A DNA stretch of 61,389 nucleotides from an uncultured Burkholderiales bacterium. Lineage in GTDB: Bacteria; Vulcanimicrobiota; Xenobia; Xenobiales; QWHO01. Each line of letters opens with the position of its first letter. Position 1 is the first letter of the stretch. Positions 20,657-60,919 of the stretch are shown piece by piece. A program made the position numbers and the translations under genes. The notes below the pieces were generated by a model. That model had not been told where the DNA came from and ran no database searches. It saw only the letters and a list, made by a program, of their open reading frames with translations. The stretch is from the NCBI GenBank assembly GCA_964637145.1, contig CAZWUN010000002.1, positions 1 through 61,389 on the forward strand, given 5' to 3'.

Positions 20657-20765
20657 GCAGCTTGAACCTAGCGGGTCGGGGTGAAAAGTCTCTGAACGTG
20701 CGTCGAGATCGTGGGGCTGCTGGGGCCCAACGGCGCCCGCTTGCAAGGAGGGCCGGAAACATGGC

Positions 20766-22238
20766 TCAGGCCATGTCGAGCAGCTCTTGCAGGCTCTCGG
20801 CCTCATCAGGGGTAGCCCGGCCGCTCTTGAGGTAGGCCCGGCAGGTCTGGCGGGCCTCTTTCAAGCGGTTCTGCTCGATCTGGGTGCGGATCCGGCCTTC
20901 CACCGCCGGGAAGAAGGCCGACTGCAGCTCCAGGGCGCGGTTGTAGGCCTGCTCTGCCTCGGACGGGCGGTCGAGCTGCAGGCAGCACTCGCCCCTGTTG
21001 CACCAGGCCAGCAGGCTGTCGGGCGCCTCTTCACAGGCCCGCTCGAAGCTGATCAGGGCCTGCTCGAGCTCTCCCGCCCGGGCCAGCAGGGTTCCCCGGT
21101 TGAGCCAGGCCAGCATGGTGGTCGGACTTGCTTTGACGGCTCTGTCCAGGAGCGCCTGAGCCTCGTCCTCCTCTCCCAGGCGCATCAAGCATGAGCCCAG
21201 CGCGGCCAGGGCCACGCCGTCCCTGGGGTGCTCTGACATCGCTTGCCGATAAAGGGGAAGGGCCTGCTCGGGCGATTCTCCTTCCAGGAAGAAAGCTCGG
21301 GCCAGAGCGCGGGCCAGCAGCTCGGGAGCCCTGGCCAGGGCGCGGTACAGGCCCTGGCTGGTCAACACCCGAGAATCGCACGGAGCCAGCTCTACAGCCC
21401 GGTCGAGGCACTTGAGGGCCTCGTCCAGCTGCCCTCTGCGAGCCAGAGACCCGGCCTGGCCCAGCCAGCAGCGAGGGTTCTCAGGCGCGAGAGCCAGGGC
21501 TTTCTCCAGGCTGCGGGACGCGTCCTCGCTGCGATCCAAGAGTTCGAGGGCCCGCGCCTGCTCGAGCCAGTAGGGAGCGGCATCATCCAGCCGGGCCGCC
21601 CGGTCGAAGCGTTCCAGGGCTTCCTCGAGGTGGCCCAGGTCCAGCAGTCGGTTGCCCTGTTTGTGCCAGAACTCCGCCTGGATCTGGGGTTGGGTGATTC
21701 CCCTGGCCCGCAGGCCGGCCAGGTGCTCCGGCAGGCCTTCCAGGGAGAACCGGGTGGCCAATCCTCCCAACTCGGACCAGAGCCCCTGCAGTTGCCCCAG
21801 TGCGACCGCTTCTTGCAGCGCCCCCTCCGAATCGCCTCCAGATAGCTCCAGCGCCCGGGTAGCCGCCTGCCAGCCTTCCTCGAACCGGCCCTGCTCCTTG
21901 AGGATTCGGGCCTTCTCGGCCCACCCCTCGGGCTCTTGCGGGGCCAACCGGAGGGCTTGCTCGATGGCCTGGGCGGCCTGTTCCAGGGAGAGTTGTTGGC
22001 GGTGGGCCGCGGCCAGAGCGCACCAGGTATCGGCGCGCTCGGGATGGAACTCTCGGGCGCGCTCGAGCGACTCGAGCGCTTCGGCCGCCATGCCGCACGC
22101 GAGCAGGATCTGGGCCCGAGCCAGCAGCACCTCCACGTTCCCGGGCGACTTCTTGAGAGCTCGCTCAAGCACGTTCATGGCGCCATCCGGGTCGCCGCGC
22201 TCGAACTTGCCCATGGCCTGTTGGACGGGATCTTTCAT
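20766..22238 (-). CDS. tetratricopeptide-repeat protein
   Basis: 490 aa of repeated 34-aa A/L/E-rich TPR-like units (e.g. W..LA.....G....A...YRQAL...P). Confidence 0.8.
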   Translation of the reverse strand: MKDPVQQAMGKFERGDPDGAMNVLERALKKSPGNVEVLLARAQILLACGMAAEALESLERAREFHPERADTWCALAAAHRQQLSLEQAAQAIEQALRLAPQEPEGWAEKARILKEQGRFEEGWQAATRALELSGGDSEGALQEAVALGQLQGLWSELGGLATRFSLEGLPEHLAGLRARGITQPQIQAEFWHKQGNRLLDLGHLEEALERFDRAARLDDAAPYWLEQARALELLDRSEDASRSLEKALALAPENPRCWLGQAGSLARRGQLDEALKCLDRAVELAPCDSRVLTSQGLYRALARAPELLARALARAFFLEGESPEQALPLYRQAMSEHPRDGVALAALGSCLMRLGEEDEAQALLDRAVKASPTTMLAWLNRGTLLARAGELEQALISFERACEEAPDSLLAWCNRGECCLQLDRPSEAEQAYNRALELQSAFFPAVEGRIRTQIEQNRLKEARQTCRAYLKSGRATPDEAESLQELLDMA

Positions 22239-25603: not shown

Positions 25604-25704
25604 AGACGGGCTCTCTCTGAAGTGGGATCCTGCTGGAAGCTGGGAGACTGGCAGTAAGGGGGCTTTTCAAGCTCCCTTCAGGCATCCGGAGTAGACTGGA
25701 AGGG

Positions 25705-28209
25705 ATGCACATTCTCGCTCAGAGCGCGGCCCGCACCCTGAGCTGGTTCGGGCCTCAGCGAGCCAGCTCGGTTGAGAGTCCCGACAGCGTGGTGCTGGGA
25801 GAAGAGCGCGCCACCGAGCCCAGGACCCTGGCCCCGGCCTGGGTGGCCGAGACGCCTCCCGTCCCGGCGCCGGCCCCCGAAGGCCGGGTTGCCATGGCTT
25901 TCCTGACCGGGCTTCGCCGCCAACTCATCGAGGGGAGCGCCACCCTGGACAAGCCCATGCAGGCGGAGCTGGCCAGGCAGGCCCACGGCCAGGGGCATCC
26001 CCTGGCTGCCCGCCTGGCCCGAGTGCTGCTCGACGACCACGCCCACTACGATTCCGCCCTGGAGATGTGGGTGGCCGAAGCGGGCGATCCGGTGGCCTAC
26101 CTCGAGGGACTGCACGAGAGGATGAGTGAAGACCGAGCCCGGCCTGAGGGGGCCTTCCCTCTCCACCTCGACGTCTGGGATCAGTTTCTCGATCACCTGA
26201 AGGAACGGCCCATGACGCCCACCGCTCTGCGCACTCTGGTGCACCTGTGGACCGGGCTCGAGGACCGCGCTCGGCTCCAGTTCGACAGCGATACGCGGGC
26301 CCAGGAGCCGGCCGAGGCCGACCTCAAAATGGCCGCGCGCTGCCGCGCCCAGGTGGAGGCCTGGGTGGGAAGCGGTCAGGCCCGGGTGGTGGGGGGCACC
26401 CTGGACCAGGTCAAGCTGGGCGCAGCTATCTCCGACAACCGGATCGAAGTCCATCCCAGCCCGCTGGATATCGCCCGCCTGGATCCGGCCGACCCCGATC
26501 CCACGGCTCGTCTGATCGCCGAGGGTCGCCTCGGACGCGACGGCGGCGCTCTGGCCTCGGCCCTGGGCGAGCTCATCAAGCAGCATCCCCGGCTCGAGGA
26601 GGGCGGTTATGTGAGCCGCAACCTGATCCCGCTGCTCCTTGCCGACCATGTCGGACCCAGCTACGCGGCCCGGTCGGCCCTGAGCAACCTGTTCGAGCGG
26701 CGCGCCGATCTGATGAGCCCGGTGCTGCAAACTCTCTGCCTGCAGCACCGCGGCGTTTATCTGCCCGAGCCGTTGGAGAAGACGGTCCAGTATGCCGGTC
26801 TCAAGCTCGGCTGGCGCCCCGATACCCCCGAGCAGGTTGCCTGGCTGGCCGGCAAGCTTTTCCAGTCGCGGGGCGGGCAGGAGGGCGACCACTTGATGCG
26901 CAGCTCCAGTGAGTTCACCCTGGCCGTTCAGCTTCTGAAGGATTGTCCCGCAGAGCTGCTGGCCACTCTCCCCCTTCCAACCAGCTTGCCCGAGGCTGCT
27001 CTCGACCATCTGCTCGAGGTCGGCAACGACGACCGGCTGCTCGACCTTTGGAACGGGGAGTTTGACCACGCCTGGCTGGTGGGCGAGCGGGGAGAATCGC
27101 TCCTGGCCGGGTTGGAGACGGCCTACCGGCAGGCCGGCAGCCTGGAGGATCTGCCCCCGCGCGCCCGGGCCACTCTGGCCATCTTGCACCAGGATCCGAC
27201 CAACCGGCCGCGGCTCTACGCCCTGCTCGAAGGAGACCTGGAGAGGCAGCCTGAGCACCGGGCCACCCGCCGGATGGTGGATGCGGCCCGCCTGCACGCC
27301 CTGGAGCAGGGACCCCAGCGACTGGGCCAGCTCTCCGGCTCCGAGCGTGGCCGCGAGCTCGAGCGCCTGTTGCGGATCAACTCCTTGCTGGGCGAGGAGG
27401 TGCCCGGATCGGGTCTGATGGAGCCTTACGAGAACCAGCTGGCCTCGGAGCGCTCGGCCCCCCTCCTGGCGGCCCTCGATCCGGCCGAGCGAAGCGCCCT
27501 GGGCGGGCCTGCCCTGGCTCGCTTCGAAGAGAGCTACCGCCAGGCCGGCTCGCTGGAGGAGCTGGGTCCCGAGGCCCGGGCCTCGCTCAGCCTGCTCGCT
27601 AACCTCTGGACGGAGCAGCCACAGCTCTCCCAGAAGCTGCTGAGCCTGCTCCGACCCGAGCTGGAAAGCGGCGCTGCCGGCGTGCCAGACGAGCTGGAAG
27701 CTCTCATCGATGGCTACGTGGCCGAAGAGACCGCTCGCGCGGTAGGCGGCTTTGCCGGCCAGGATCTGCCCGAGCGAGTGGCCAGCTACCAGACCGGCCT
27801 GAAGCTCGCCCGGGCCTCCTCCGATCGAAGAGACCTCGAGCGGACCCTCCGGGATGGGTTCTGTGCCCAGGCGGCGGCCCACCCGGTGCTCTCGAAGCTG
27901 GTCGATCCCGACGAGCTGGATGCCTCGCTGGAGGTGCTTCACGAGCTGATCCAGGACCCGGACGGCTGGGCCAGCGGGGCAGAGCGCTACCTGGAGCTGA
28001 CCGGCAAGCTCCCCGAGGACGGCATGGGGGTTTACCAGCAAGCCCGCGAGCTGCGCGGCCAGGGGATGCCCTGGGAGGCGGCCCGGGAGCTGGCTCTGCG
28101 GCGCCACCTGAAGGTGCCCGACCGCTCGCCTGGCGCGGCCGTCGAGCTTTCCCCGGGCAAGGTCACGGTGGGGGGCGTGGTGGTTCGCGAGCGTCGGCGC
28201 AACAGCTGA
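25705..28209 (+). CDS. large hypothetical protein (834 aa) with VTVGGVVVRERRR C-terminal tail
   Basis: GC3 bias and an acidic, helical composition favour the plus frame over the 849-aa antisense ORF. An internal duplication is visible (YRQAGSLEDLPPRARA / YRQAGSLEELGPEARA). I recognise no domain. Confidence 0.75.
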   Translation: MHILAQSAARTLSWFGPQRASSVESPDSVVLGEERATEPRTLAPAWVAETPPVPAPAPEGRVAMAFLTGLRRQLIEGSATLDKPMQAELARQAHGQGHPLAARLARVLLDDHAHYDSALEMWVAEAGDPVAYLEGLHERMSEDRARPEGAFPLHLDVWDQFLDHLKERPMTPTALRTLVHLWTGLEDRARLQFDSDTRAQEPAEADLKMAARCRAQVEAWVGSGQARVVGGTLDQVKLGAAISDNRIEVHPSPLDIARLDPADPDPTARLIAEGRLGRDGGALASALGELIKQHPRLEEGGYVSRNLIPLLLADHVGPSYAARSALSNLFERRADLMSPVLQTLCLQHRGVYLPEPLEKTVQYAGLKLGWRPDTPEQVAWLAGKLFQSRGGQEGDHLMRSSSEFTLAVQLLKDCPAELLATLPLPTSLPEAALDHLLEVGNDDRLLDLWNGEFDHAWLVGERGESLLAGLETAYRQAGSLEDLPPRARATLAILHQDPTNRPRLYALLEGDLERQPEHRATRRMVDAARLHALEQGPQRLGQLSGSERGRELERLLRINSLLGEEVPGSGLMEPYENQLASERSAPLLAALDPAERSALGGPALARFEESYRQAGSLEELGPEARASLSLLANLWTEQPQLSQKLLSLLRPELESGAAGVPDELEALIDGYVAEETARAVGGFAGQDLPERVASYQTGLKLARASSDRRDLERTLRDGFCAQAAAHPVLSKLVDPDELDASLEVLHELIQDPDGWASGAERYLELTGKLPEDGMGVYQQARELRGQGMPWEAARELALRRHLKVPDRSPGAAVELSPGKVTVGGVVVRERRRNS

Positions 28210-30616: not shown

Positions 30617-30804
30617 CTGGATGGACCTCCCTGCGTTGATGATCCCATCCTGACTTCGGAAGCTGGCGCCGATCTGAAATCGTGTGAACGAGTTCGGAGC
30701 TTTTTCAGAGCCTCCGGATAAGGTGGAGGCATGCTGCCATCCGTCCAGGAGATGAAGAACGTTTCCCCATTGACCCTGCTTGCCAGGAGAGGAGATTTTG
30801 TGCC

Positions 30805-31365
30805 GTGCATCTCATGCCTCTGAGCGCCTCGAGCGCGCCACCAGAGCCCACCAGCCGGGAGCGTTTGAACAGCACCATCACGCATTTTCAGGCGCTGGTG
30901 GACCAGTGGGAGCCCGAGATCAAGACCGACCTGGAGAACTGCGAGAAATGGCGTTCGTCCGCCCTGAAGAATGATAAGCTGGCTGGTTGGGGCCTGAAGG
31001 GAGCCGTGGCCGGGGGCGTCCTGGCCATGGTCGGGGCGGGCGTATCGCTGGCCATGGGTCTCGGGACCCACGGCGTCTTTCCGGGGCTGGGGGTCTTCCT
31101 GGTGGGGATCACCGTCTGCCAGGTCGCCTGCATGCGCCGGGACAGCGCTCAGATGGAATATCAGATGACCTTTCCCAGCGTGAAGCACCGTCAGGAGCTG
31201 TTGAAGACTCGGGCCTATCCGCAGCTTGAGCAGGCCCGCGCGGCCCTGCTCAAGCAGGATACCGAGGAAATGACCGCCCTGGCGGATGGGCTCCGCCAGG
31301 TCGGCAACATCATGGAGACCAAAGACTCCCTGGTGGTGGGGGGAACCCTGATTCGCAAGCGCTGA
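30805..31365 (+). CDS. TM-hairpin hypothetical protein with DSLVVGGTLIRKR C-terminal tail
   Basis: AGGAGAGGAG lies upstream. The start is GTG 30805 or ATG 30814. A Gly/Ala-rich double hydrophobic segment sits mid-protein. Confidence 0.65.
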   Translation: MHLMPLSASSAPPEPTSRERLNSTITHFQALVDQWEPEIKTDLENCEKWRSSALKNDKLAGWGLKGAVAGGVLAMVGAGVSLAMGLGTHGVFPGLGVFLVGITVCQVACMRRDSAQMEYQMTFPSVKHRQELLKTRAYPQLEQARAALLKQDTEEMTALADGLRQVGNIMETKDSLVVGGTLIRKR

Positions 31366-31393: not shown

Positions 31394-32185
31394 TCACGGG
31401 TGGGGGCTTTGAGACACGGGCATCGCGCCTTCCCAGCGCCGGGGCACCACCACTCCACCCACGATGAGCGAATCACCTCGAGTTTCCAGGCTCGTTGATT
31501 CAGGCCCGTCCGTCAGCCTGGCCACTTCGCTCAGCTCCTGGATTGTCTGGCCCAGAGCCTCCCGGGCGGCTGGCTCCAGGAGGGGCTGGTGGAGCAGGTC
31601 CGCGATCAGTTCGTCGACCGTCTGGCCGGGCAGGCTCTGGAACCGCCGCTGCAGGGCGCCGATCTGGCGGGCCGTCTCCAGCGAGCCCTCGGCCACCAGG
31701 CGGGCTTCCCGAGCACACAGGCCCTCGAGCAGCGTCTCGCGACCGAGGACTGGTCGCTGAGGGAGGGCGCCTGCGGCGGACTGGCCACGCTCGATAGCCT
31801 GGATCAATCTCTGGCAGCCCTCGCGCTCACTTCCCTGTCGGTGCCAGCGGACCAGCAGCACGGCCGAGGTCGCCGCCCCCACGGCCCCCACCAGGGTGAG
31901 CGGCCAGAAGCCATAGCCCAGGCCGCAGCCGGCCACACCCAGGCCGAGAAGTCCGGTCCACAGGGGCAGAGTCTGATGATCAGGGCTTCGCTCCGGGATG
32001 GCCTCCATGCGCTCGGCAGCTGCGCAGTGCATAGAGTAGAGATCTTCGCCAGGCGCCTGGCTGAGGGTCAACCGGTCGGTCTCAGCCTGGCGGGCGCCCT
32101 CCAGGTCACCTTGCACGACCAGGGCTGTGCGGCGAGCCTGCAGGGCCTCGCAAACGGTCTGGCGGGAGGGGGAATGAATGTTCAT
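31394..32185 (-). CDS. TM-hairpin hypothetical protein with DSLIVGGVVVPRR C-terminal tail
   Basis: 263-aa ORF with a Gly-rich double hydrophobic segment (LWTGLLGLGVAGCGLGYGFWPLTLVGAVGAATSAVLLV). Convergent with 30805..31365. Confidence 0.65.
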   Translation of the reverse strand: MNIHSPSRQTVCEALQARRTALVVQGDLEGARQAETDRLTLSQAPGEDLYSMHCAAAERMEAIPERSPDHQTLPLWTGLLGLGVAGCGLGYGFWPLTLVGAVGAATSAVLLVRWHRQGSEREGCQRLIQAIERGQSAAGALPQRPVLGRETLLEGLCAREARLVAEGSLETARQIGALQRRFQSLPGQTVDELIADLLHQPLLEPAAREALGQTIQELSEVARLTDGPESTSLETRGDSLIVGGVVVPRRWEGAMPVSQSPHP

Positions 32186-32342
32186 GGCCCTTTCAGGCTA
32201 GGGCTTCCAGCGCAGGCCAAAGTTACACCGCCGCGCTAGATTGTGAACTTCACGCCCGGTCAGGCAAGGCCATTTTCGTGACGAGCGCATTGGACCCGGC
32301 TGCTCCGGGAGGAGGGCCCCAGCCGTGCCGGAAAGCGCATGA

Positions 32343-35932: not shown

Positions 35933-35936
35933 CATC

Positions 35937-36368
35937 GTGTCGCGTCGCGGTTTTTCCCTGGTTGAGATGATGCTGGCCCTGGGCGTCGTGACGGTAGCCA
36001 TCCTGGCGCTGGTCTCGGTGTTCGTCTCGGGGGTCAAGATGGCAGCCCAGGCTCGCGACATCGCCGCCGCCAACGAACTTGCCCGTCAAGTTCTGGAGAG
36101 AACCCGCTTCAGCATCCGCACAGGCGGTCTGGCGGTGGTTCCTTCGGGGAGCTACACTTTCGACGGAAGAATTCCCGACCCTCAGGTCGGGGTCGCTCCG
36201 TTGGAGTTTCCGCCCCCTCCCTACCCCGGTCGGGCGGCCAACAAGCAGAATTACTCCATCGTGGTCTCCGGCTCGGAGATCACCCCCGGGCGCCTGAAGG
36301 CCATCCGGGTCGAAGTTCGCTGGGGCACGACCAGCCAGGTGGCCCTGGAGACCCACCTGCACCCGTGA
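35937..36368 (+). CDS. prepilin-type N-terminal cleavage/methylation domain protein
   Basis: A GTG at 35937 gives VSRRGFSLVEMMLALGVVTVAILAL, the class III signal (G|FSLVE). Confidence 0.75.
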   Translation: MSRRGFSLVEMMLALGVVTVAILALVSVFVSGVKMAAQARDIAAANELARQVLERTRFSIRTGGLAVVPSGSYTFDGRIPDPQVGVAPLEFPPPPYPGRAANKQNYSIVVSGSEITPGRLKAIRVEVRWGTTSQVALETHLHP

Positions 36369-42563: not shown

Positions 42564-45500
42564 GGGGGCGAACTTCGCAGGAACGATCCCGGTTGCCTGC
42601 GGGAGGTTGCACTTGCTCCTCGTGATCCTCATTCTGATCGGCTGGCTGGCTCTGCCGGGGATGGCCGAGCCTCCCACCCTGATTTTGCAGGATGGGCACA
42701 CCGACAGGCTGGCCTGCCTGACCTTCGACCCTGCGGGACGCTGGCTGGCCACCGGCTCGGTGGACCAGACCGTCAAGCTGTGGGATCTCGAGGCCGACAA
42801 GCTGCACTGCACCATCCACCTCGAGGACGCTCCCCTGGCGCTGGCCTTCAATTCAGGTGGGCAGCTGGCCGTGGGCACCCGGAAGGGCGTGACCCTTTAT
42901 GACAGCAGCAACGGTCTGGCCCTTAGCCCTGGCCCGGCAGCGGCTCTGCGCAACCCCGCGGCTCTGGCCTTCCTGAACTCCGACCTGGTGTTGGGCATTT
43001 CCGAGGACGCAACCGGGCCTCGGGCCAACGTGGCCGACCTCAAGCGGGAAGGGCGAATCGGTCTGGGCTGGCCGCTGCCGAGCATCACGCCGCAGGCGAG
43101 GCTGGCGCCAGCCGGGCTGGCCCTCAGCCCGGACGGCAGGTATCTGGCCATCGCTTATGTCGAGCTGGCCCCTCGCGAGCTCAAAGCCACCGACCGCTTC
43201 GTGGCGGTCTGGGACGTCTCGGCCTTCGGTCGATTCTCGGGCCCGCTGGTGGGGGACGACTTCCAGGCCCGGCCGGAAGTGCTTTCCCTGTTGGGAGACG
43301 GCCGGCCTCTGGCCCGCATGGCCCTGACCCCGAGGCCAGGGATCGACCCCAGCTTCGACCTGCGGCTCAGCCTGGCATTCAGCCCCGACAGCCGCAGGCT
43401 GGCCGTGGCCGATCTGAACGAGGTGGCCCTCTTCGACCCCGCCAACGGCAGCAAGCTGGCTTCGGCTCCCGGTGCCTGGCGGCGGATCGCCTGGGGCAAG
43501 GCGGGTATTCTGGCCACGAACTTCCTCAACACCAGCAGTCAGCCCAGGCTGGCCTGGCTGGGGAGCGATTTGAAGGGGCAGGTGCTTGTCGCCGAGCGCC
43601 CTCCCTATGAAGGCGAAGAGCTGGCTCTGGCAGCCCTGCAAGGAACGGAAGGGAATATGGCCGACACCTTCGGCTACAGCGCTGTGGCAGCCAGTCTCAA
43701 GACCACTCTGTTCGCGGCCTGTCAGGGAGAGCAGTGCGAGCTCTGGGAGGGGGCGCAGCTGACCAGAAAACTGACCGGCAGGTCCCTTTGTCTGAGCGCC
43801 CTGGCTCTCAGTCCCGACCGCCGCCTGCTGGCGGTGGGAGGCTACGGTGCCGTGGTCGTCTGGGACCTGGAGCGGGGCAAGCCGGTCTACCGCTTCGGCC
43901 AGTTGGGAGGCCTGGAGGTGCTCAGCCTGGCCTTCTCGGCCGACGGCCGGATGCTGGCGGCCGGAGAGTTCACCAAGATTGGGGCCGCGCGGCTCAGAGT
44001 GTGGGAGTTGTCGGGCCAGATCCTGGTGCTGGAGCAGTCGAAAGCCGCTCCGCCCGCCTTCACCCGGCAGGCCGATGGGAGCATCAACGGGCGCCGAACC
44101 GATACCGGCTATCTCAGCCTGGCTTTCAGTCCCGATGGCCGCTGGCTGGGGGTGGGCGAGATCGGCGGAAGCCTGTCGCTGGTTGCTCTGCCGGGGGGTC
44201 AGACGCGGCTGCTGAAAGGGGAGCAGGAGGACACCTGGCGGGGCGCAGTGGGGAGCCTGGCCTTCTCGCCCGACGGGCGGCGTCTGGTGTCTTCCACCAA
44301 CGGTGGGGAAGTGGTCGAGTGGGAGATCCCCTCGGGCAAGGCGCGCACCCTGATGCCCCAGACCGACCGTTTCGGCCGGAGCAGTCTGGCCTTTGCCCGA
44401 GATGGCACGCTGGTGACCAAGACTCGCAAGCAGGGGCTGGTCGTCTGGAAGCCCGGGGCGGCCCCCAGAGTGGTGGACCCGGAAGACAACCCCGCCGTGC
44501 TTTGCTCGGTCGACTCCGGTACCGCTCTACTGGCTGGCGAGCAGGTGACCGAGCAGCGGGATCTGTCCACCGGCAAGAGGCTCTTCTCGCTCAAACTGCC
44601 CTACCCGACGGCGCGCGCCTTCCTGCGCGAGGGGGTTCTCATCGCTCCGGACTCGCAATCCTCGGTGGGCTTCTGGAAGGCGCCCGAAGGAAAGCTGCTG
44701 GCCTCGGCCATCATGCTCGACGAGGGGGGGCAGTGGCTGGTGGCGGCTCCGGACGGCTTGTTCGACGGCTCCTCCGAGGCCTTCAAGCAGATCCAGTGGC
44801 GGCTCGGCGGCCAGCTCTACGCCCTGGACCAGTTCTACAACGACTTCTTCGCGCCGGGACTTTTGACCAGGCTGCTCCAGCCCGGGCCGGCTCCCCAGCC
44901 CGCCCAGGCCCTGAGCAGCCTGAAGGTGGCCCCTCCCGAGCTGACCATCCTCAAGCCCCAGGCCGGCGATTCGGTGAATGAGGCCAGCCTGACCGTGGAG
45001 GTCAAGCTCGAGGATCGAGGCGGGGGAGTCTCGCTCGTGCGTCTTTTCCAGAACGGCCATCGCGTGCCGGACGAGCGCATCCAGGTAGAGGGCGGTGTGG
45101 CCCGGGCCCGGGTCGACCTCGAGGGCGGCGTGAACACTCTGCGGGCCACGGCCTTCGATCGGGAGGGCAAGGTGGAGAGCCGGGGGGATACGGTGCGAGT
45201 CACGTGCCTCGCCCAGGGCGCAAAGCCCCGGCTGCACGTGCTGTCCGTGGGGGTCAGCCGCTACCAGGACAGCCAGCTCAACCTGAGGTCGGGCCGCGCG
45301 GACGCCGAGTCCATCGCGCAAGCCTTCAAGCCGGGGAGCCTGTTCGAAGAAGTGAAGGTGACCTTGCTGGTGGATGACCAGGCCAGCGTGGCCGGAGTTC
45401 GCAAGGCCCTGCAGGATCTGAAGGCGGGAGCCGCCCCCCAGGACACGCTGCTGGTCTTCCTGGCCGGCCACGGCCAGGTGCTGGGGCAGACCTTCTACTT

Positions 45501-45987
45501 CGTGCCTCACGAGGGGAAGGTGGCCACTCCCGAGCAGATCCAGGCCAGTTGCCTCTCTTCGGTCGAGCTGGCCGAGGCTCTGACCCGGGTGGCCGCCACG
45601 CGCCAGTTCGTGGTGCTCGACTGCTGCCACTCGGGGGCGGCGGCCACCAGCATGAACCAGGCTCTCTCCGCCGGACTGGTGCGAGCCCAGCAGGATCTGG
45701 CCCGCCAGAGCGGGGTATTCCTGGTGGCGGCGGCATCGACCGATCAGGCGGCGCTGGAGGCCGGAAAGCTCGAGCACGGCTTGCTGACCTACTCGGTGCT
45801 GAGCGGCCTGGGCGACGACAAGCCCCCCGGAGCGCCGGTGAACTCTCGCGGCCTGGTGACCGTGAACGGATTGCTCTTGTTCGTGTCGGGCGAGGTGCCC
45901 CGGCTGGCCGAGGAGTACTTCGGCCAGCCACAGGATGTGGTGCAATACAGCAGCGGGCAGGATTTCCCCCTGCGCCGCGTGCGCTAA
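42562..45987 (+). CDS. WD40-repeat protein with C-terminal caspase-like (peptidase C14) domain
   Basis: The N-terminus has a hydrophobic segment. Many WD40 units follow (GHTDRLACLTFDPAGRWLATGSVDQTVKLWD, ...). The C-terminal domain has HVLSVGVSRY, FLAGHG (His) and LDCCHSG (Cys). The start is uncertain (ATG 42562 or TTG 42613). Confidence 0.85.
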   Translation: MGANFAGTIPVACGRLHLLLVILILIGWLALPGMAEPPTLILQDGHTDRLACLTFDPAGRWLATGSVDQTVKLWDLEADKLHCTIHLEDAPLALAFNSGGQLAVGTRKGVTLYDSSNGLALSPGPAAALRNPAALAFLNSDLVLGISEDATGPRANVADLKREGRIGLGWPLPSITPQARLAPAGLALSPDGRYLAIAYVELAPRELKATDRFVAVWDVSAFGRFSGPLVGDDFQARPEVLSLLGDGRPLARMALTPRPGIDPSFDLRLSLAFSPDSRRLAVADLNEVALFDPANGSKLASAPGAWRRIAWGKAGILATNFLNTSSQPRLAWLGSDLKGQVLVAERPPYEGEELALAALQGTEGNMADTFGYSAVAASLKTTLFAACQGEQCELWEGAQLTRKLTGRSLCLSALALSPDRRLLAVGGYGAVVVWDLERGKPVYRFGQLGGLEVLSLAFSADGRMLAAGEFTKIGAARLRVWELSGQILVLEQSKAAPPAFTRQADGSINGRRTDTGYLSLAFSPDGRWLGVGEIGGSLSLVALPGGQTRLLKGEQEDTWRGAVGSLAFSPDGRRLVSSTNGGEVVEWEIPSGKARTLMPQTDRFGRSSLAFARDGTLVTKTRKQGLVVWKPGAAPRVVDPEDNPAVLCSVDSGTALLAGEQVTEQRDLSTGKRLFSLKLPYPTARAFLREGVLIAPDSQSSVGFWKAPEGKLLASAIMLDEGGQWLVAAPDGLFDGSSEAFKQIQWRLGGQLYALDQFYNDFFAPGLLTRLLQPGPAPQPAQALSSLKVAPPELTILKPQAGDSVNEASLTVEVKLEDRGGGVSLVRLFQNGHRVPDERIQVEGGVARARVDLEGGVNTLRATAFDREGKVESRGDTVRVTCLAQGAKPRLHVLSVGVSRYQDSQLNLRSGRADAESIAQAFKPGSLFEEVKVTLLVDDQASVAGVRKALQDLKAGAAPQDTLLVFLAGHGQVLGQTFYFVPHEGKVATPEQIQASCLSSVELAEALTRVAATRQFVVLDCCHSGAAATSMNQALSAGLVRAQQDLARQSGVFLVAAASTDQAALEAGKLEHGLLTYSVLSGLGDDKPPGAPVNSRGLVTVNGLLLFVSGEVPRLAEEYFGQPQDVVQYSSGQDFPLRRVR

Positions 45988-45998
45988 GGAGGCTCACG

Positions 45999-46424
45999 AT
46001 GCAAGTCCCGGTGGAAACGGTTCGGGTCCCCCTCAAGGCCGTGCCGATGTTCTCGGCCCTCAGCCTGGAGCAGCTGACCGAGGTGGCTCAGCACTCCAAG
46101 ATCAAGAAGCTTCATGCGGGAGAGCGCCTGCTCACCCAGGGCGAGACCGGCTCGGAGTTCTACGTGGTGCTGGCCGGCTCGCTCAGCCTGACGGTGGACG
46201 GCAAGGCTCTCTCCACTCTCAATCCGGGCGACCACCTGGGCGAGATGGCCCTGCTCGAGGACATCCCCCGCCAGGCCACCGCCGACGCGCTCGAGCCCTG
46301 CGAGCTGTTGACCCTGGACCGCCCGGCGCTGCTCGCGCTCCTCAAGAGCTCGGACTTCTCGCTGGGCCTGTTGCGCGGCATGGCCCGGCGCCTGCGCGAG
46401 TTCGGCGAGAAGGCGGCCCGCTGA
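45999..46424 (+). CDS. stand-alone cyclic-nucleotide-binding domain protein (141 aa)
   Basis: AAGGAGG lies 6 nt before the ATG at 45999. CNB pattern: F..L....L.......K...AGE.L..QGE.G..FYVVL.G...L...G, then GDHLGEMALL...PRQATADA. Confidence 0.85.
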   Translation: MQVPVETVRVPLKAVPMFSALSLEQLTEVAQHSKIKKLHAGERLLTQGETGSEFYVVLAGSLSLTVDGKALSTLNPGDHLGEMALLEDIPRQATADALEPCELLTLDRPALLALLKSSDFSLGLLRGMARRLREFGEKAAR

Positions 46425-46428
46425 CGCT

Positions 46429-47322
46429 TTGGGCTGCCTGACCAAGAAGCTGGTCTCGCTCGACCTGATCAAGCCCCCTCGGTTCGTGGCCGAGAACGTC
46501 CACTACGAGACGCTGATGGGCAGCCAGGCCTACGGTGTCTCCAGCGACAGCTCCGACTGCGATGTCTACGGGTTCTGCATTCCCCCACGGGACGTGGTCT
46601 TTCCCCACCTGGCCGGGGTGGTGCCGGGCTGGGATCAGAACGTGCCCACCTTCAACGACTTCCAGCAGCACCACATCGACCTGCCCGGCGAGCGCAAGTC
46701 GTACGACCTCACCATCTACTCCATCGTGCGCTACTTCCGCCTGTGCGCCGATGGCAACCCCAACATGGTGGACAGCCTGTTCACGCCCGCTCACTGCATC
46801 CTGTTCATGACCCCGGTGGGCCAGCGGGTGCGCGAGCAGCGCAAGCTGTTTCTGAGCAAGAAGTGCTGGCACACTTTCAAAGGCTACGCCTTTGCCCAGC
46901 TGTCCAAGATTCGCACCCGCACCGATCCCAAGAGCGAGGCGCGCAAGAAGACGATTCAAGACCACGGCTACGACGTGAAGTATGCCTACCACCTGGTACG
47001 CCTGCTCAACGAGGTGGAGCAGATTCTGCTCGAGGGCGACCTCGACTTGCTGCGCGGCAACGACCAGCTCAAGGCCATCCGCAAGGGAGACTGGCCCCTG
47101 GAGGCGGTCTTCGCCCACTTTGACGAGCGCATCAAGACGCTGGAGAAGATCTATCCCGACTCCACCGCCGTGCCTCACAGCCCGCCCGAAGAGGCGCTCA
47201 AGGAGCTCTTGCTCGAGTGCCTCGAGCATCACTATGGCTCACTGGCGAAAGTGGTGGAGCGGCCCAACCGGGAGAAGGTCATGCTGGAGAAGATCCGCCA
47301 GGTGCTCGACGGGGAGCTTTAA
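46429..47322 (+). CDS. predicted nucleotidyltransferase (pol-beta fold, RlaP/PF10127-like)
   Basis: GSQAYGVSSDSSDCDVYG matches the GS..YG...SD.D NTase motif. The family assignment is from memory. The TTG start at 46429 is uncertain. Confidence 0.7.
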   Translation: MGCLTKKLVSLDLIKPPRFVAENVHYETLMGSQAYGVSSDSSDCDVYGFCIPPRDVVFPHLAGVVPGWDQNVPTFNDFQQHHIDLPGERKSYDLTIYSIVRYFRLCADGNPNMVDSLFTPAHCILFMTPVGQRVREQRKLFLSKKCWHTFKGYAFAQLSKIRTRTDPKSEARKKTIQDHGYDVKYAYHLVRLLNEVEQILLEGDLDLLRGNDQLKAIRKGDWPLEAVFAHFDERIKTLEKIYPDSTAVPHSPPEEALKELLLECLEHHYGSLAKVVERPNREKVMLEKIRQVLDGEL

Positions 47323-47323
47323 A

Positions 47324-47358
47324 GGCGCCCCCGAAGGACAGGCAAAACCGTCAACACT
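47324..47358. repeat. copy 1 of a 35-37 nt intergenic motif
   Basis: GGCGCCCCCGAAGGACAGGCAAAACCGTCAACACT matches 50688..50724 at 32 of 35 aligned positions, with a 2-nt indel. Confidence 0.6.
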
Positions 47359-47372
47359 GAAAGCTTAACACA

Positions 47373-47525
47373 TCAGGCTCTGGTTTTGAGGGCCACGCCC
47401 CCGACCAGGAGCTTCTGGGCGACGGTCGCAATGGCGCCCCCCAGCGGCCCGTTCACCAGCCTGGCGACCTGGTTGCTGGCGGCCTGGTGGCCGTCAGCAA
47501 CCAGGTCGCTCAGCGGCACGGCTAC
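47373..47525 (-). other. 50-codon in-frame extension downstream of TAG, ending LLVGGVALKTRA
   Basis: Hand translation gives VAVPLSDLVADGHQAASNQVARLVNGPLGGAIATVAQKLLVGGVALKTRA*. 44 of 50 codons end in G or C. It is in frame with 47526..47927. Confidence 0.55.
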
Positions 47526-47927
47526 CTAGATCTGTCCGGTGGCGCTCTTCAAAGTGGCCCGCTCGCTGACGATGCGGACGACCGTGGCCGGCTCGGAGAA
47601 GAACGGATCCTTGCCCAGGTCGGAGGTCTCGGTGGGGACCACCCTTTGCTCCTTGAGCCTGTGCACGGGGAGGGTGGGGGGAAACAGGCTGTCGGCCACC
47701 CGCTCGGCAACCTTCTCGGCCATCTGCGAACAGACCACGAAGACCTGACCCTCCTGGTTGACCAGCCGGAGCATCTCGCGCCCGTTGACTGTCTCGACGC
47801 GCTCGACCTGACAGACTCCGGGCCCGTCGGTGACCGAGCGCACGCGATCAAGCTCACTGGACGGCACGGACCTCGAGGTCAGGTCGAGCGTGACCTGGTC
47901 TCGGGTTGGCCCCTGGGGAGCAGTCAT
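47526..47927 (-). CDS. hypothetical protein (133 aa up to an in-frame TAG)
   Basis: Strong GC3 bias. I recognise no domain. The frame continues after the TAG (see 47373..47525). Confidence 0.6.
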   Translation of the reverse strand: MTAPQGPTRDQVTLDLTSRSVPSSELDRVRSVTDGPGVCQVERVETVNGREMLRLVNQEGQVFVVCSQMAEKVAERVADSLFPPTLPVHRLKEQRVVPTETSDLGKDPFFSEPATVVRIVSERATLKSATGQI

Positions 47928-47961
47928 AGGAGCCCGGTACTCGGGCGCCGAAAACTTCTCG

Positions 47962-48459
47962 ATGGCTCGTTCTAAGAAAGGCCTGGGCGGATTTCGTCCC
48001 GAGAGCTTTGCTCCCCGCGAGCGCCGTTCCGAGGAGCCACCGCCACCGCCTCCGCCCTCGCGTTCCGTCGACCCGGCCCTGATCGGCGCCGCCGCCCGGG
48101 TGATCGGCTGGGGCGTGGGCCAGTGGAAAGAGTCCGCTCGGCAGGCCCGTGAGCTCGAGACCGAGTTGTTGCGTATGGCTCAAGATCGTCTGGGGATTTT
48201 GACCGTCAATGATGCCGTGCGTGAGCTCGGGGCGGCCCGAGCCGCCATCGAGAAGCAGCTCGCCGCGCTGACTCATCGGGGTTGCTGTCGTCACGGGATC
48301 TCGCGCAATGGTCAGGAGATCTTCGTCTTCGATGAGTTCCTTCCGAGGCTTTACGCCTGCCACCATTGCGACGGCGAATGGGCCGAGGAGCGGCCCAGTT
48401 GCCCCGGGTGCGGCGCTCCGCTCCACGAGCGGGTGTGCGCTCCTCCTCTGAGAAATTAG
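47962..48459 (+). CDS. hypothetical protein with C-terminal zinc ribbon
   Basis: ATG at 47962 inside ORF 47830... It has a Pro-rich linker and then CHHC...CPGC. Confidence 0.6.
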   Translation: MARSKKGLGGFRPESFAPRERRSEEPPPPPPPSRSVDPALIGAAARVIGWGVGQWKESARQARELETELLRMAQDRLGILTVNDAVRELGAARAAIEKQLAALTHRGCCRHGISRNGQEIFVFDEFLPRLYACHHCDGEWAEERPSCPGCGAPLHERVCAPPLRN

Positions 48460-48464
48460 TCTGT

Positions 48465-49472
48465 TTAAGGGAGTTTCAGCAAGCGACGACGCATGGTAGG
48501 GGAGAGCTGGTGGCGGGCGTACAGGGCATCCAGCTCGGCCTCGCTGATCCCGCCCGGGTGATCGAGAACGAAGCTCCAGCGCCCGTTCACGCGTTCCCAG
48601 ATGGCCCAGCGGCCCTGCTGCTGGGTGCTGCCAAAGTAGAGGTCGCGGTAGGGCACCCAGGCCGCCCAGGTAACTTTGGCGCCGTATTGCTCCTGAGAGG
48701 CCTGACGCAACTCCTGCCCTAACTGCCGGGGGGCATAGATATAGCCAACGTAGAGGCGCCCGTCGTCGTAGATGCGAAGGTTTTCCACCTCGCCTGCTCC
48801 GGCCCACTTCCACAACACTTTGCCGCTGGCCGGGTCGATGCGGGCCAGTCCCCCCTCCAGGTCGGCGAAGACGCATCCACGCTGGTAGAAAGCTCCCCAG
48901 GGGTAGCGGCAGTGCGCGAAGTGCCAGGTCGCCTTCCAGAGCGTGGATCCGTCGGCCCACTTCATGCAGGTCACGCCTTCGGCGCTGTCTGTGAAGAGGT
49001 AAGGCCCGGCCACGGTGAGGCGGGGTTTGTGAGCGGCCAGGCTGCGCCCGCTCGAGTGAAACTCGGTGCGCACCAGGGGGTGAAAGTGGTCATTGCGGAT
49101 CAGGCCAAACATGCCTGGCCCCTCGTATCCCTCGTCTGCTCGGAAAGCAAACTGCGTGCCGTCACTGAGCAGACCTCGCCCGGTCACGGCCTGGCCGATC
49201 TGCCACTTGCCGCCGTAGGGCTTGGTGGCGGCATCCTCGTCCTCGAAGCCGACGATGTAGACCTTCTTTTCATGGCCGCAAAAACGGCGTGAGTAGGGGA
49301 AGTGAGGAGCTTCGACTCCGTCCAGGACCTCTTGCTGCAACTCTTCGTCCAGCCGGTAGTGCCCCAGAACGCGTCCCGATTCAGGGTCGAGCACGGCCAG
49401 AAAGGAAATGCCCGGGTCTTCGGCCCGAGCCAGGCCGAACAGCAGAAGCGCAACCAGGAGGACCCTCCCCAT
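48465..49472 (-). CDS. secreted hypothetical protein, paralog of 24482..25603
   Basis: Signal peptide MGRVLLVALLLFGLARAEDP. An alternative start lies at 49559. Colinear similarity with the 24.5-kb protein. Confidence 0.7.
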   Translation of the reverse strand: MGRVLLVALLLFGLARAEDPGISFLAVLDPESGRVLGHYRLDEELQQEVLDGVEAPHFPYSRRFCGHEKKVYIVGFEDEDAATKPYGGKWQIGQAVTGRGLLSDGTQFAFRADEGYEGPGMFGLIRNDHFHPLVRTEFHSSGRSLAAHKPRLTVAGPYLFTDSAEGVTCMKWADGSTLWKATWHFAHCRYPWGAFYQRGCVFADLEGGLARIDPASGKVLWKWAGAGEVENLRIYDDGRLYVGYIYAPRQLGQELRQASQEQYGAKVTWAAWVPYRDLYFGSTQQQGRWAIWERVNGRWSFVLDHPGGISEAELDALYARHQLSPTMRRRLLKLP

Positions 49473-49689
49473 GAAAGCCTTGTTCAGCACCTGAACCGTG
49501 CTTCCTGGCCGGGTCTGCGCATCCCACCTTCGGAGCCATCCGAGGGTCGATTTGCTCAAAGATGCTCCTTTGGCCGGGTCCCGTTCCCGGGAACCGCGAG
49601 CGTACCCCGCAAGTTCCGTCGAGGCGGTTTCCAGAATCGTTCAGCCCCGTTCCCTACGCTGGTGTCGCAAGCAAGTGATAGGAGCGTCG

Positions 49690-50660
49690 ATGCCAGGACC
49701 TCGCAGCGATTTTGAGCGCGTAGACTATGAGCAGCCCCACTTCATCCGGATGCGAGCGATCCTGGAGGCTCATCCGGAGATCAAGCAACTGTTCGGGCCC
49801 GACAGCCGGATTGCCGCATGGACCGTTGCGCTGGTAGGCGGGCAACTGGCCCTGGGCGCCTGTCTCGAGGGGCGTTCTTTCTGGATGATCCTCGTCACCG
49901 CCTATGTCATCGGCGCCGTGGCCAATCACGCCCTCTGGGTGGTGATCCACGAGTGTGCTCACCGCCTGGTGTTCCGACGTGCCCTGGGCAACCGCCTGCT
50001 CTGCCTGCTGGCCAACTGGCCCCAGGTCGTCCCCGGAGGGATCCCGTTCTGCAAATACCACCTCTTGCACCACGCCTATCAGGGCGAGCAAGACTTCGAC
50101 GGTGACCTGGCGGGCGAGGACGAGGCCCGGTGGGTGGGCAACAGCACGCTCCGCAAAGCTTTGCTGATGCTGCTCTTCTCCTTCGTTCAGGGCACGATTC
50201 GCCCGGCCATCTCAAGCGGGTCCGTCTCTGGGATGGTTGGTTCGTGGCCAATATTCTCAGCCAGCTGTTCTTCCTGAGCGTCTACGCCCCCCTGGCGGGC
50301 TGGGGAGCAGTGCTCTATCTGTTCTTGTCGTTCGTCTTCAGCATTGGCCTGCATCCTCTGGGAGGCCGCTGGATCGCCGAGCACTACCTGCATCACGACC
50401 TGCAGGAGACCTATTCTTACTACGGTCCGCTGAACAAGCTCAGTTTCAACGTGGGCTACCACAACGAGCACCACGACTTCATGCAGGTTCCCTGGTGCCG
50501 ACTTGGGCAGGTGAGGGCCATCGCCCCGGAGTTCTACCAACCGCTCTACGCTCACCCATCCTGGCCCGCCGTGCTGAAGCGCTTCATCTTCAGCCCTCAA
50601 AGCACTCTGTACGATCGGGTGGTGCGAGCCCGGCAACCTTCCGACCGACCGGACCTTTAA
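49690..50660 (+). pseudogene. sphingolipid delta-4 (dihydroceramide) desaturase-like fatty acid desaturase, split by a 1-nt frameshift near 50203-50210
   Basis: ORF 49498..50277 carries the DEGS-type N-terminus DFERVDYEQPHFIRMRAILEAHPEIKQL and His boxes HECAH and HLLHH. ORF 50130..50660, in another frame, carries GLHP, ETYSYYGPLN and HNEHHDF. Confidence 0.8.
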
Positions 50661-50687
50661 AGTGAAGTGCTCGACAGACTTGTATGG

Positions 50688-50724
50688 GGCGCCCCCAAAG
50701 GATAGGCAAAACCTTCAGAACACT
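50688..50724. repeat. copy 2 of a 35-37 nt intergenic motif
   Basis: GGCGCCCCCAAAGGATAGGCAAAACCTTCAGAACACT. Like copy 1, it lies in a convergent intergenic gap just after a plus-strand TAA. Confidence 0.6.
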
Positions 50725-51210
50725 TCAGGTCAACTCCAGCTTCACCGTCAGCAGGCCCGGCTCGAACCCCAGTGACTCCACCGAGACGTGCAGAGGCTCG
50801 ACCCACTTCTGGCGGGCCATCCACTCGTTGACGCGGCGCAGCGAGATGCTGATTCGGCCGGCCTTCTTGCCCTGAAAGGTGACCTGCTCCACGCTCAAAG
50901 TGTCCGAAGGCAGCCCGGCCGCCACCAGGCGCGGTCCGGCCTGCTTGAGCACCTGGTCGGTGATCACCCCCCACAGCATCTTGGTCAACTGGCCCATCAG
51001 GTTGCCGGTGATGTTGCCGCGGATCTGATCGAAGGGCAGGTAGAGCACCAGCTCGCTGCCCTCCACGGTGGGCACGGCCACCAGCGAGGCGGCCCCGATG
51101 GGGAGCTTGCGGTTTAGCACGAAACAGCCGTCCTGGTAGCTGGCCGAGAGATCCTGCACCCGGTCGAGCAGCACGTTGACGTGGGGCTCGGTGAGGGCCA
51201 GCTCGATCAT
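50725..51210 (-). CDS. hypothetical protein (161 aa)
   Basis: The ATG at 51210 (MIELALTEPHV...) overlaps the upstream stop (ATGA). The earlier part of ORF 50725..51510 is Arg/Gly junk. Confidence 0.6.
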   Translation of the reverse strand: MIELALTEPHVNVLLDRVQDLSASYQDGCFVLNRKLPIGAASLVAVPTVEGSELVLYLPFDQIRGNITGNLMGQLTKMLWGVITDQVLKQAGPRLVAAGLPSDTLSVEQVTFQGKKAGRISISLRRVNEWMARQKWVEPLHVSVESLGFEPGLLTVKLELT

Positions 51211-52240: not shown

Positions 52241-52312
52241 ACATACGTAGCTCATCGGTAGAGCACTCGACTGATAATCGAGAGGTAACTGGTTCAAGTC
52301 CAGTCCTTTGCT
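52241..52312 (+). tRNA. tRNA-Ile(GAU)-like gene with defective acceptor stem
   Basis: The D arm (GCTC-ATCGGTA-GAGC), anticodon arm (CTCGA-CTGATAA-TCGAG) and T arm (ACTGG-TTCAAGT-CCAGT) are canonical. Acceptor ACATACG/CCTTTGC pairs at only 4 of 7 positions, and no CCA is encoded. Confidence 0.45.
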
Positions 52313-59821: not shown

Positions 59822-59899
59822 ACCTGAGGGTTCGAGGCTGACGAAGCGGCAACCTTTGCGTAACATTCGGCCCTTTACCCCCTGGACGGCGGGCGTGAG

Positions 59900-60919
59900 T
59901 TGGAGGACATGCAGGTCCACGTCCTCAGCCGGGACGCGGTGATGAAGACGGTCTACGAACGGGCCGACCGACTCAAGAGCTCCGAGCTTTCCGACCCGGG
60001 CAGCGCCGCTGCTCGGGATGTCGTGCTGCGCGAGGCCTATCGGATGGAGCAGATTCCCGGGGCCGACACGACCGCCATGCACGGCGAGCTCGCCAGGCTG
60101 CGTCAAGAATCTCGCTCCGACGGCCGGAAGGCTATCCTCGTGGGGGCCGGCCTGGCGGCCGCCGGAGTGGCAGTGGGTCTGGCCCTGGGGCCCAGCCTGC
60201 CCATGGCCGGCACCATCGCTCCCATCGTGGGGGTGGGCTCAGCCGCAACGGCCTTTCTGATTGGCTATGGCGGCTTCCATAACGATCGCTTCTATCAAGA
60301 GACCGGCGAGATGCTCGATCGCTGGACGCGCGTGGCTACGGCCCCTCCGCTGGCCCCGGGGGAGTGGCTCAAGACCCTGCCGGCGGCCACACCCAACGCG
60401 CCCGCCACGCGCCAGGAGGTGCTCGAGCTGATGCAGGCCTCCCGCGGCTACCTGGCCGCCAACCTCGATCAGCCCGGCCATGCCGCCGCCCTGACCGAGG
60501 TGGAGCGCGACCTGGCCGGTCTCTCGGCTCGCCCCGAGGAGAAGCTGAGCGATGTGCGCGCCAACCTGGGCGCCGAGCAAGCGGCGCTGCGTAAGCAGAT
60601 GTTCAAGGTGGGCTGCGGGGCCGTCGGGGGAATGATCCTCGGGCTGGTCGGCCTGCCCTTCCTGGGCGCTACCGGCATCGCCCTCGGCTTCGGCGGCTCG
60701 GCCGCCCTGACCACGGTGGGGCAACTGATGCTGCGGCGCGAGAAGAAGATCCTGACCCTGGATCGGCACCTGGCGGGGTGGGAAAGGCAGCTCGAGAACC
60801 TCAAAGCGATCTCCTCGGAGGTCCACCAACTGGCCAATCCTGGCCAGACCGTCGGGGTACAGCGCCAGGCCGGCTACCTGGTGGTGGGCGGGGTACGCGT
60901 GCCGGTGGCGGCGGGGTGA
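59900..60919 (+). CDS. hypothetical membrane protein with two TM hairpins and [15 protein letters not shown]-terminal tail
   Basis: 339-aa ORF. The start is uncertain (TTG 59900, ATG 59909 or ATG 59942). It has two Gly/Ala-rich double hydrophobic segments. Confidence 0.65.

Follow-up and report, generated by a model that had tools for sequence, protein, structure and literature searches.

Several stop-codon recoding signals have been described, including the bacterial SECIS for UGA, the PYLIS hairpin that follows the UAG of Methanosarcina mtmB, and the viral stimulators of UAG read-through. They are recognised by an in-frame stop, a stable stem-loop within about 20 nt of it, and a conserved in-frame extension. 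Young pseudogenes arising by nonsense mutation, which enter annotations as an 'internal stop' or as two adjacent hypothetical proteins, have another set of features: a sense codon in the orthologues, a downstream part that is homologous and codon-biased, a position in an accessory, variable locus, and independent lesions in sister genomes. A third group of described systems consists of C-terminal sorting or targeting tags, such as PEP-CTERM, GlyGly-CTERM and the encapsulin cargo-loading peptides (e.g. ...LTVGSLRR).

The locus studied here lies in a window of 61,389 nt, by which we mean the whole stretch of DNA that was analysed. It shares the listed features of the recoded genes, but its stop and hairpin are not conserved, TAG is a normal terminator here, and recoding machinery was not found in the window. 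It also shares the features of the young pseudogenes, from which it differs in that its C-terminal piece has not decayed yet and both of its indels are in frame. Our analysis indicates that it is probably a young pseudogene, in which a nonsense mutation has recently hit an accessory gene that is dispensable and decaying. The positions of all features are collected in Table 1.

Table 1. Features of the split gene, its surroundings and the tail-bearing ORFs (window coordinates unless another contig is named).
Feature	Position	Strand	Remarks
Gene 5′ part, 133 sense codons + TAG	47526..47927	-	Identical to P0001; alignment, AF2 models
In-frame TAG	47526..47528	-	Homologous codon AGG in L001, AAG in KLAP168-type genomes, CGG in P0007; Arg residue in P0004
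Extension, 50 codons + TGA (stranded C-terminus: last strands of domain 2, linker, tail)	47373..47525	-	
48-aa ORF from GTG (P0003)	47373..47519	-	Separate protein in NCBI-derived record; GTG within lower stem of hairpin
Tail motif LLVGGVALKTRA	47376..47411	-	Identical in L001; near-identical in distant homologues (VIGGVALKQR, VLGGVALRQR)
Near-perfect palindrome, 46 bp	47464..47509	.	21-nt arms, 20/21 complementary, 4-nt loop; encodes SDLVADGHQAASNQVA
Variable island, 3.4 kb, between RlaP and 261-aa gene	47331..50721 (L011 6901-7696; L005 8427-9183)	.	
Sphingolipid/fatty-acid desaturase, two overlapping frames	49498-50660	+	Split near 50205..50215
Tail-bearing membrane protein	59864..60919	+	Stop-to-stop coordinates
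Tail-bearing ORF (...SLIVGGVVVPRRWEG...)	31394..32197	-	Stop-to-stop coordinates
Tail-bearing ORF (...SLVVGGTLIRKR)	30688..31365	+	Tail kept in KLAP168 orthologue
Tail-bearing ORF (...KVTVGGVVVRERRRNS)	25621..28209	+	Stop-to-stop coordinates
Tail-bearing tandem-repeat protein (...HWIIGGVALKKRED...)	18953..20860	-	Stop-to-stop coordinates

On the minus strand, an ORF opens with the ATG at 47927 and ends after 133 codons in ...SATGQI, followed by the TAG (47528..47526). Past the TAG, the same frame continues for 50 sense codons (VAVPLSDLVADGHQAASNQVARLVNGPLGGAIATVAQKLLVGGVALKTRA, starting with VAVPLSDLVADGHQ and ending with LLVGGVALKTRA) up to a TGA at 47375..47373. The original prediction had described this arrangement of ORF, TAG and open frame, and re-deriving the coordinates reproduced it, with the TGA at 47373. 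It had also remarked on the coding look of the extension, which our analysis bears out: GC at the three codon positions is 0.78/0.48/0.88, the same pattern as in real genes of the window, so that 44 of the 50 codons have G or C at the third base. At the G+C of the window (66%), an open run of 50 codons past a stop is by itself unremarkable. At least 53 open codons follow the stop in 6 of the 32 genes checked; none of these six runs has a composition like that of the extension. No promoter-like or terminator-like sites were found in 47150..48150.

Relatives were sought among 5.8 billion proteins by word-indexed search and among 1.84 billion representatives by exhaustive HMMER search; a second profile search was run as well. 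Combined, the protein searches gave a family of six entries in total. Two of them, P0001 (133 aa) and P0003 (48 aa), are the window's own 5′ and 3′ pieces in NCBI-derived records. The other four cover the site of the TAG: P0002 (141 aa, 84% identical), which comes from a Logan contig (L001) and has the junction ...GQI-R-LSVPLSDLKRWRADGHQ...; P0005 (57 aa), from KLAP168-type genomes, with ...GQI-K-LSVPLRDLKRWR...; and two intact distant homologues, P0004 (159 aa; ...GEV-R-DISILHLKRL...) and P0007 (160 aa, about 35% identical; ...GEV-R-DLSILHLKRV...). Thus Arg or Lys stands at the TAG position in 4/4 relatives covering the site, and all of them run on in frame. Where DNA exists, the site codon is AGG (P0002/L001), AAG (P0005/KLAP168 type, 37 index blocks) or CGG (P0007); AAG to TAG is one substitution, a transversion. 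The original prediction had proposed looking for a sense codon in orthologues, and had named orthologues ending at the same position as the outcome that would speak against it. These three codons, plus the Arg of P0004, supply the former, and the relatives read through to the tail. Nor is the split itself conserved, the gene being fused in L001, P0004 and P0007, while the KLAP168 remnant has another start and a damaged motif.

A further match, P0006 (2890 aa, 13 matched repeats), was dropped from the family as spurious, being a low-complexity repeat protein. Protein-pattern scans of genome-contig and metagenome-contig collections found no relatives, and a 20-nt DNA pattern scan of metagenomes returned chance matches and one already known KLAP168-type contig only. 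Searches of Pfam and NCBIfam with the ORF, the extension and the fused protein gave nothing meaningful.

Against L001, dN/dS is 0.21 upstream of the TAG (88 aligned codons) and 0.195 downstream (50 codons); over the last 29 codons there are 8 differences, all of them synonymous. Homology and purifying selection both extend across the junction. Because the relatives read through the site and dN/dS is equal on either side of it, the extension is taken to be the gene's real C-terminus: by these sequence comparisons, the 50 codons past the TAG are real coding sequence that was formerly part of the upstream ORF. A downstream frame with no coding signature, the other outcome that would have counted against the original prediction, is therefore not what the dN/dS of 0.195 and the codon bias indicate. 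Over the whole gene, dN/dS is 0.20-0.32, as against 0.05-0.12 for RlaP and the 165-aa neighbour, i.e. 2-6 times higher. The window-specific substitutions in the tail number 3-4 and every one is synonymous, although gene-wide dN/dS is above that of the neighbours.

The window belongs to a Candidatus Xenobia (Eremiobacterota) bacterium. Its closest relatives were identified by the neighbouring RlaP in a scan of species-representative genomes. They are Candidatus Xenobia bacterium AMX-MBFR-33 (97% protein identity), followed by Candidatus Eremiobacteraeota bacterium KLAP168 (95%) and Vulcanimicrobiota bacterium AS-MICRO-3CA.307 (84%). An intact copy of the gene was found in 0/4 of the closest sampled relatives (L001, KLAP168 type, AMX-MBFR-33 and AS-MICRO-3CA.307). 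In L001, both flanks are syntenic, and 173 bp are missing, which comprise the first 46 codons and the entire intergenic region; the ATG of the gene and the start codon of its divergent neighbour (CAT) now overlap. In the KLAP168 type (37 index blocks), only a 57-aa ORF remains; a TAG stands in its frame seven codons before the DPFF motif, and two frame-keeping deletions (27 nt and 6 nt) have changed LLVGGVAL to LQGVAV, destroying the GGV motif. In AMX-MBFR-33, 47331..50721 is replaced by about 0.8 kb, and only an 18-aa trace (PGFDEPASVVRIVSGQAT) is left. No trace of the gene was detectable in AS-MICRO-3CA.307. As a separate observation, the overlapping start codons of the divergent genes in L001 (360-370, CCATGG) leave both genes without an upstream region, which is either real or a contig artefact.

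The gene belongs to a variable island that also contains the divergent 165-aa zinc-ribbon gene, a PQQ-like 364-aa gene and a frameshifted desaturase; KLAP168 has a PIN-domain gene in place of part of it. The two frames of the desaturase match Pfam profile positions 2-106 and 126-246, respectively, and the split probably comes from a 1-nt indel at ...CGCCCGGCCATC.... An independent Logan assembly of run DRR784963 (L031) reproduced it. In the remaining 58 kb outside the island, a non-systematic look noticed no disrupted ORFs, and the long ORFs examined were intact. The rest of the window is ordinary chromosome, with tkt, tal, zwf, opcA, an S13 carboxypeptidase, RNase II, two CHASE2 cyclases, a WD40-caspase protein, an alpha-amylase and histidine kinases. 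We also observed an ORF at 35853-36368 (+) whose N-terminus is like that of a type IV pilin or pseudopilin (...RRGFSLVEMMLALGVVTVAI...); it lies in a lower-GC stretch at 34-40 kb together with several ORFs without a Pfam match.

Within the extension, 16 nt 3′ of the TAG, our analysis revealed a palindrome that is the longest in the window (all other stems are ≤14 bp). A 121-nt RNA containing it folds with z = -4.2 against shuffles, compared with z = -1.05 for the L001 equivalent, and the hairpin energy is -65 kcal/mol. The palindrome is lineage-specific: it is absent from L001, and one arm is deleted in the KLAP168 type. It coincides with a 9-nt loss, in which the conserved KRW has gone, a 3-nt gain and several substitutions, all in the window lineage only. 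At the TAG itself, a 9-nt stretch carries another four window-specific substitutions, for which no donor sequence was found elsewhere in the window. Both indels past the TAG preserve the frame.

Since the closest relative lacks the palindrome, and the 9-nt loss and 3-nt gain fall at the same place, it probably originated by a quasi-palindrome template-switch mutation. Quasi-palindrome-associated template switching is a known mechanism from work in E. coli (PMC7202029). As in those cases, a clustered complex change has made a near-perfect 21-bp inverted repeat from a non-palindromic stretch (PMC7202029). Unlike in E. coli, both arms here differ from the relatives and an intermediate sequence is lacking; a single template-switch event is not reconstructable with certainty for the former reason.

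To place the stop within the protein, we used AlphaFold2 (AF2) models of the homologues. The P0007 model (mean pLDDT 63; 71-80 over residues 91-120) has two small beta-barrels (strands 8-39 and 66-117) followed by helices, and its Arg107, homologous to the TAG, is in strand 106-110. The P0002 model is weaker (mean pLDDT 51, local values about 60-70), with the homologous residue in strand 86-91. The 133-aa part corresponds to small beta-barrel domain 1, with ~20 extra residues relative to the distant homologues, and roughly the first half of domain 2. Because the homologous residue is in a beta-strand in both models, the TAG is predicted to truncate domain 2 and not to mark a boundary between domain and tail; it would lie inside a strand, not at a linker, and the 133-aa product would be a truncated domain. 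The original description of the TAG as dividing a 133-codon ORF from a tail-bearing extension thus stands as regards the frame and the tail, but in these models the cut falls within a strand of domain 2 and leaves no complete unit. When the P0007 model was submitted to Foldseek, tandem KOW, Tudor and SH3-like barrels came up, all of them as weak matches (E ≥ 0.018), which we treat as a lead on fold class, not on function.

Taken as a nonsense mutation, the locus would have had the following history. A single gene would have encoded a protein of ~185 aa, made up of two small SH3/Tudor/KOW-like beta-barrels, a helical linker and a clade-specific C-terminal tail. At a conserved Arg/Lys codon (A[A/G]G), a point mutation would recently have created the TAG. 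Translation would now stop inside a beta-strand of the second barrel, a misfolded 133-aa fragment being the likely result, and the last 50 codons would be untranslated, or translated at background level only. These stranded codons would still look like coding sequence because there has been too little time for decay. The gene would be dispensable in the Candidatus Xenobia lineage, with independent loss under way in the sister genomes. Three elements of this history are inferred: a TAG genuinely present in the DNA, a truncated product without function, and a young event. Support for a pseudogene comes from the sense codons of the relatives, the lesions in sister genomes, the second broken gene in the same island, the loss of KRW and the ordinary use of TAG as a stop; the synonymous-only window-specific changes in the tail and the frame-keeping indels past the TAG would fit continued translation too. 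Among the four options listed in the original prediction, recent nonsense mutation is accordingly the one favoured by our analysis; a sequencing error and an independent 48-aa peptide are less likely, and the lack of conservation of the TAG and hairpin argues against programmed read-through.

Gene fission, in which the 133-aa product would be accompanied by re-initiation at an internal GTG to give a free 48-aa tail-bearing peptide, is in our opinion unlikely. The GTG (47519), with its first base 6 nt past the TAG, opens a 48-aa ORF that the NCBI-derived record has as a protein of its own, and three window-specific substitutions cluster just downstream of the TAG, beside an AGG five bases upstream of the GTG. 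The window-specific tail changes, all synonymous, and the in-frame indels fit this reading, as does a short open C-terminal ORF kept in the KLAP168-type genomes. However, the cut lies within a predicted beta-strand rather than at a linker, a separate tail ORF starting here occurs in no relative, and the KLAP168 remnant starts elsewhere and has lost GGV. The GTG is, moreover, paired in the lower stem of the -65 kcal/mol hairpin. An AGG of three bases says little for a ribosome-binding site. That no convincing site precedes the GTG had been noted from the start, and the AGG is all that we found; since the neighbouring genes are also without a clear Shine-Dalgarno sequence, this feature does not discriminate.

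An artefact, with the TAG produced by an error of base calling, consensus or strain mixing in a metagenome-assembled contig and the gene really intact, is quite unlikely. A single assembly shows the TAG, on one contig without a replicate across the site. Run DRR784963 gave two Logan contigs identical to the window (100%) over 44117..47493 and 48361..51090, which leaves a gap in coverage (47494..48360, 0.87 kb) that includes the TAG; this assembly breaks on both sides of the stretch, and the break at 48361 could reflect strain heterogeneity. But the 6.1 kb of flanking sequence is identical, desaturase frameshift included, and therefore the assembly is locally accurate. Moreover, the TAG sits by a complex indel in a cluster of four window-specific substitutions in 9 nt, which resembles real divergence and not one miscall, and long ORFs examined elsewhere in the window are all intact. 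Exact-product look-ups of P0001, P0003, the 165-aa neighbour and the antisense ORF put no second copy of the TAG on record, and a 335-aa variant of the PQQ-like gene was not on record upon the same kind of look-up. With respect to the breaks themselves, the first Logan contig ends mid-palindrome. The second, from the same strain, breaks at 48361 inside the 165-aa gene, where there is no repeat or palindrome; strain heterogeneity or low coverage in 47494-48360 may be the cause.

A live locus, in which the derived TAG and hairpin would act jointly as a read-through signal or as a termination/re-initiation device, is very unlikely. If true, the tail would be conditionally attached to or released from a beta-barrel protein, which would be a new recoding switch in Eremiobacterota. 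The least probable reading is programmed recoding, with UAG read through or decoded (e.g. as pyrrolysine) with the aid of the hairpin to give 133-aa and 184-aa products: the TAG and the 21-bp-stem hairpin (z = -4.2) are adjacent and both derived in the window lineage, relatives have Lys or Arg at the site, conservation of the tail persists, and a stop with downstream structure resembles, by analogy, SECIS, PYLIS and viral read-through signals, but neither TAG nor hairpin is in any relative, the hairpin is more simply explained by a quasi-palindrome template switch, and that change deleted conserved residues, and the gene is on its way out in sister genomes. Because the TAG and hairpin are unconserved and TAG is a normal terminator here, programmed read-through is disfavoured. 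TAG is the stop of 5/38 curated genes of the window, including the S13 D-Ala-D-Ala carboxypeptidase (dacB-like) that had been cited originally as an example, and it also ends an EAL protein whose domain reaches the C-terminus. ARAGORN found no tRNA-CUA or suppressor tRNA in the window, only a tRNA-Trp and a doubtful tRNA-Ile, and no pyl domains were found in the 47 scanned ORFs. The tRNA-Ile(GAT) call (52241-52312, +) is at the very start of the stop-to-stop frame of the alpha-amylase and may be either a real tRNA located upstream of that gene or a false call.

The tail in which the extension ends was said to occur on five other proteins, and all five carriers were located. Using the motif [LIVMT][LIVM]GG[VT]x[LIV]xxR, scored within 20 residues of the C-terminus, we found the tail on 6/40 curated window ORFs, the split gene included. 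There were 3 internal matches in 18,044 coding residues, and the C-terminal enrichment has a binomial P of about 2e-6. The tail has the form ...[GD]xxhhhGG[VT]xhxxR, and its carriers are unrelated, soluble as well as membrane proteins. It is present also in KLAP168 and AS-MICRO-3CA.307 (L005 18185-18838(-); L013 10072-11388(+)). No model of Pfam or NCBIfam matched the tail-bearing proteins, and a tail-only profile found nothing among 5.8 billion proteins, being too short. The tandem-repeat carrier at 18953-20860 (-), of 635 aa, has about six copies of a ~62-aa repeat (...AELKGLVQAAGAQYGLDAFKSLPKEPEKRARSAALFQEICGWRSLVGESGWANPLLQAVDPDRPEQV...) and no family match.

Like PEP-CTERM, GlyGly-CTERM and the encapsulin cargo tags, this tail is a short motif (hhGGVxhxxR) at the extreme C-terminus of unrelated proteins in one clade. 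It differs from these tags in that no transmembrane helix follows the GG, some carriers are membrane proteins, and its motif is unlike the encapsulin GSL core. No shell, sortase or rhombosortase genes were found among the 47 scanned window ORFs. An encapsulin or microcompartment cargo tag was considered and rejected, as a shell gene is absent from these ORFs.

With nonsense mutation as the preferred reading, the 133-aa and 48-aa 'hypothetical proteins' in the annotation are two pieces of one disrupted gene, and the annotation should merge them or mark them as a pseudogene. Close Candidatus Xenobia genomes have lost this accessory gene along four different routes, and the locus also shows a probable template-switch mutation in natural DNA. 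More interesting as a lead, though a separate finding, is the hhGGVxhxxR tail, a statistically solid, uncharacterised C-terminal motif on unrelated proteins across a poorly known phylum.
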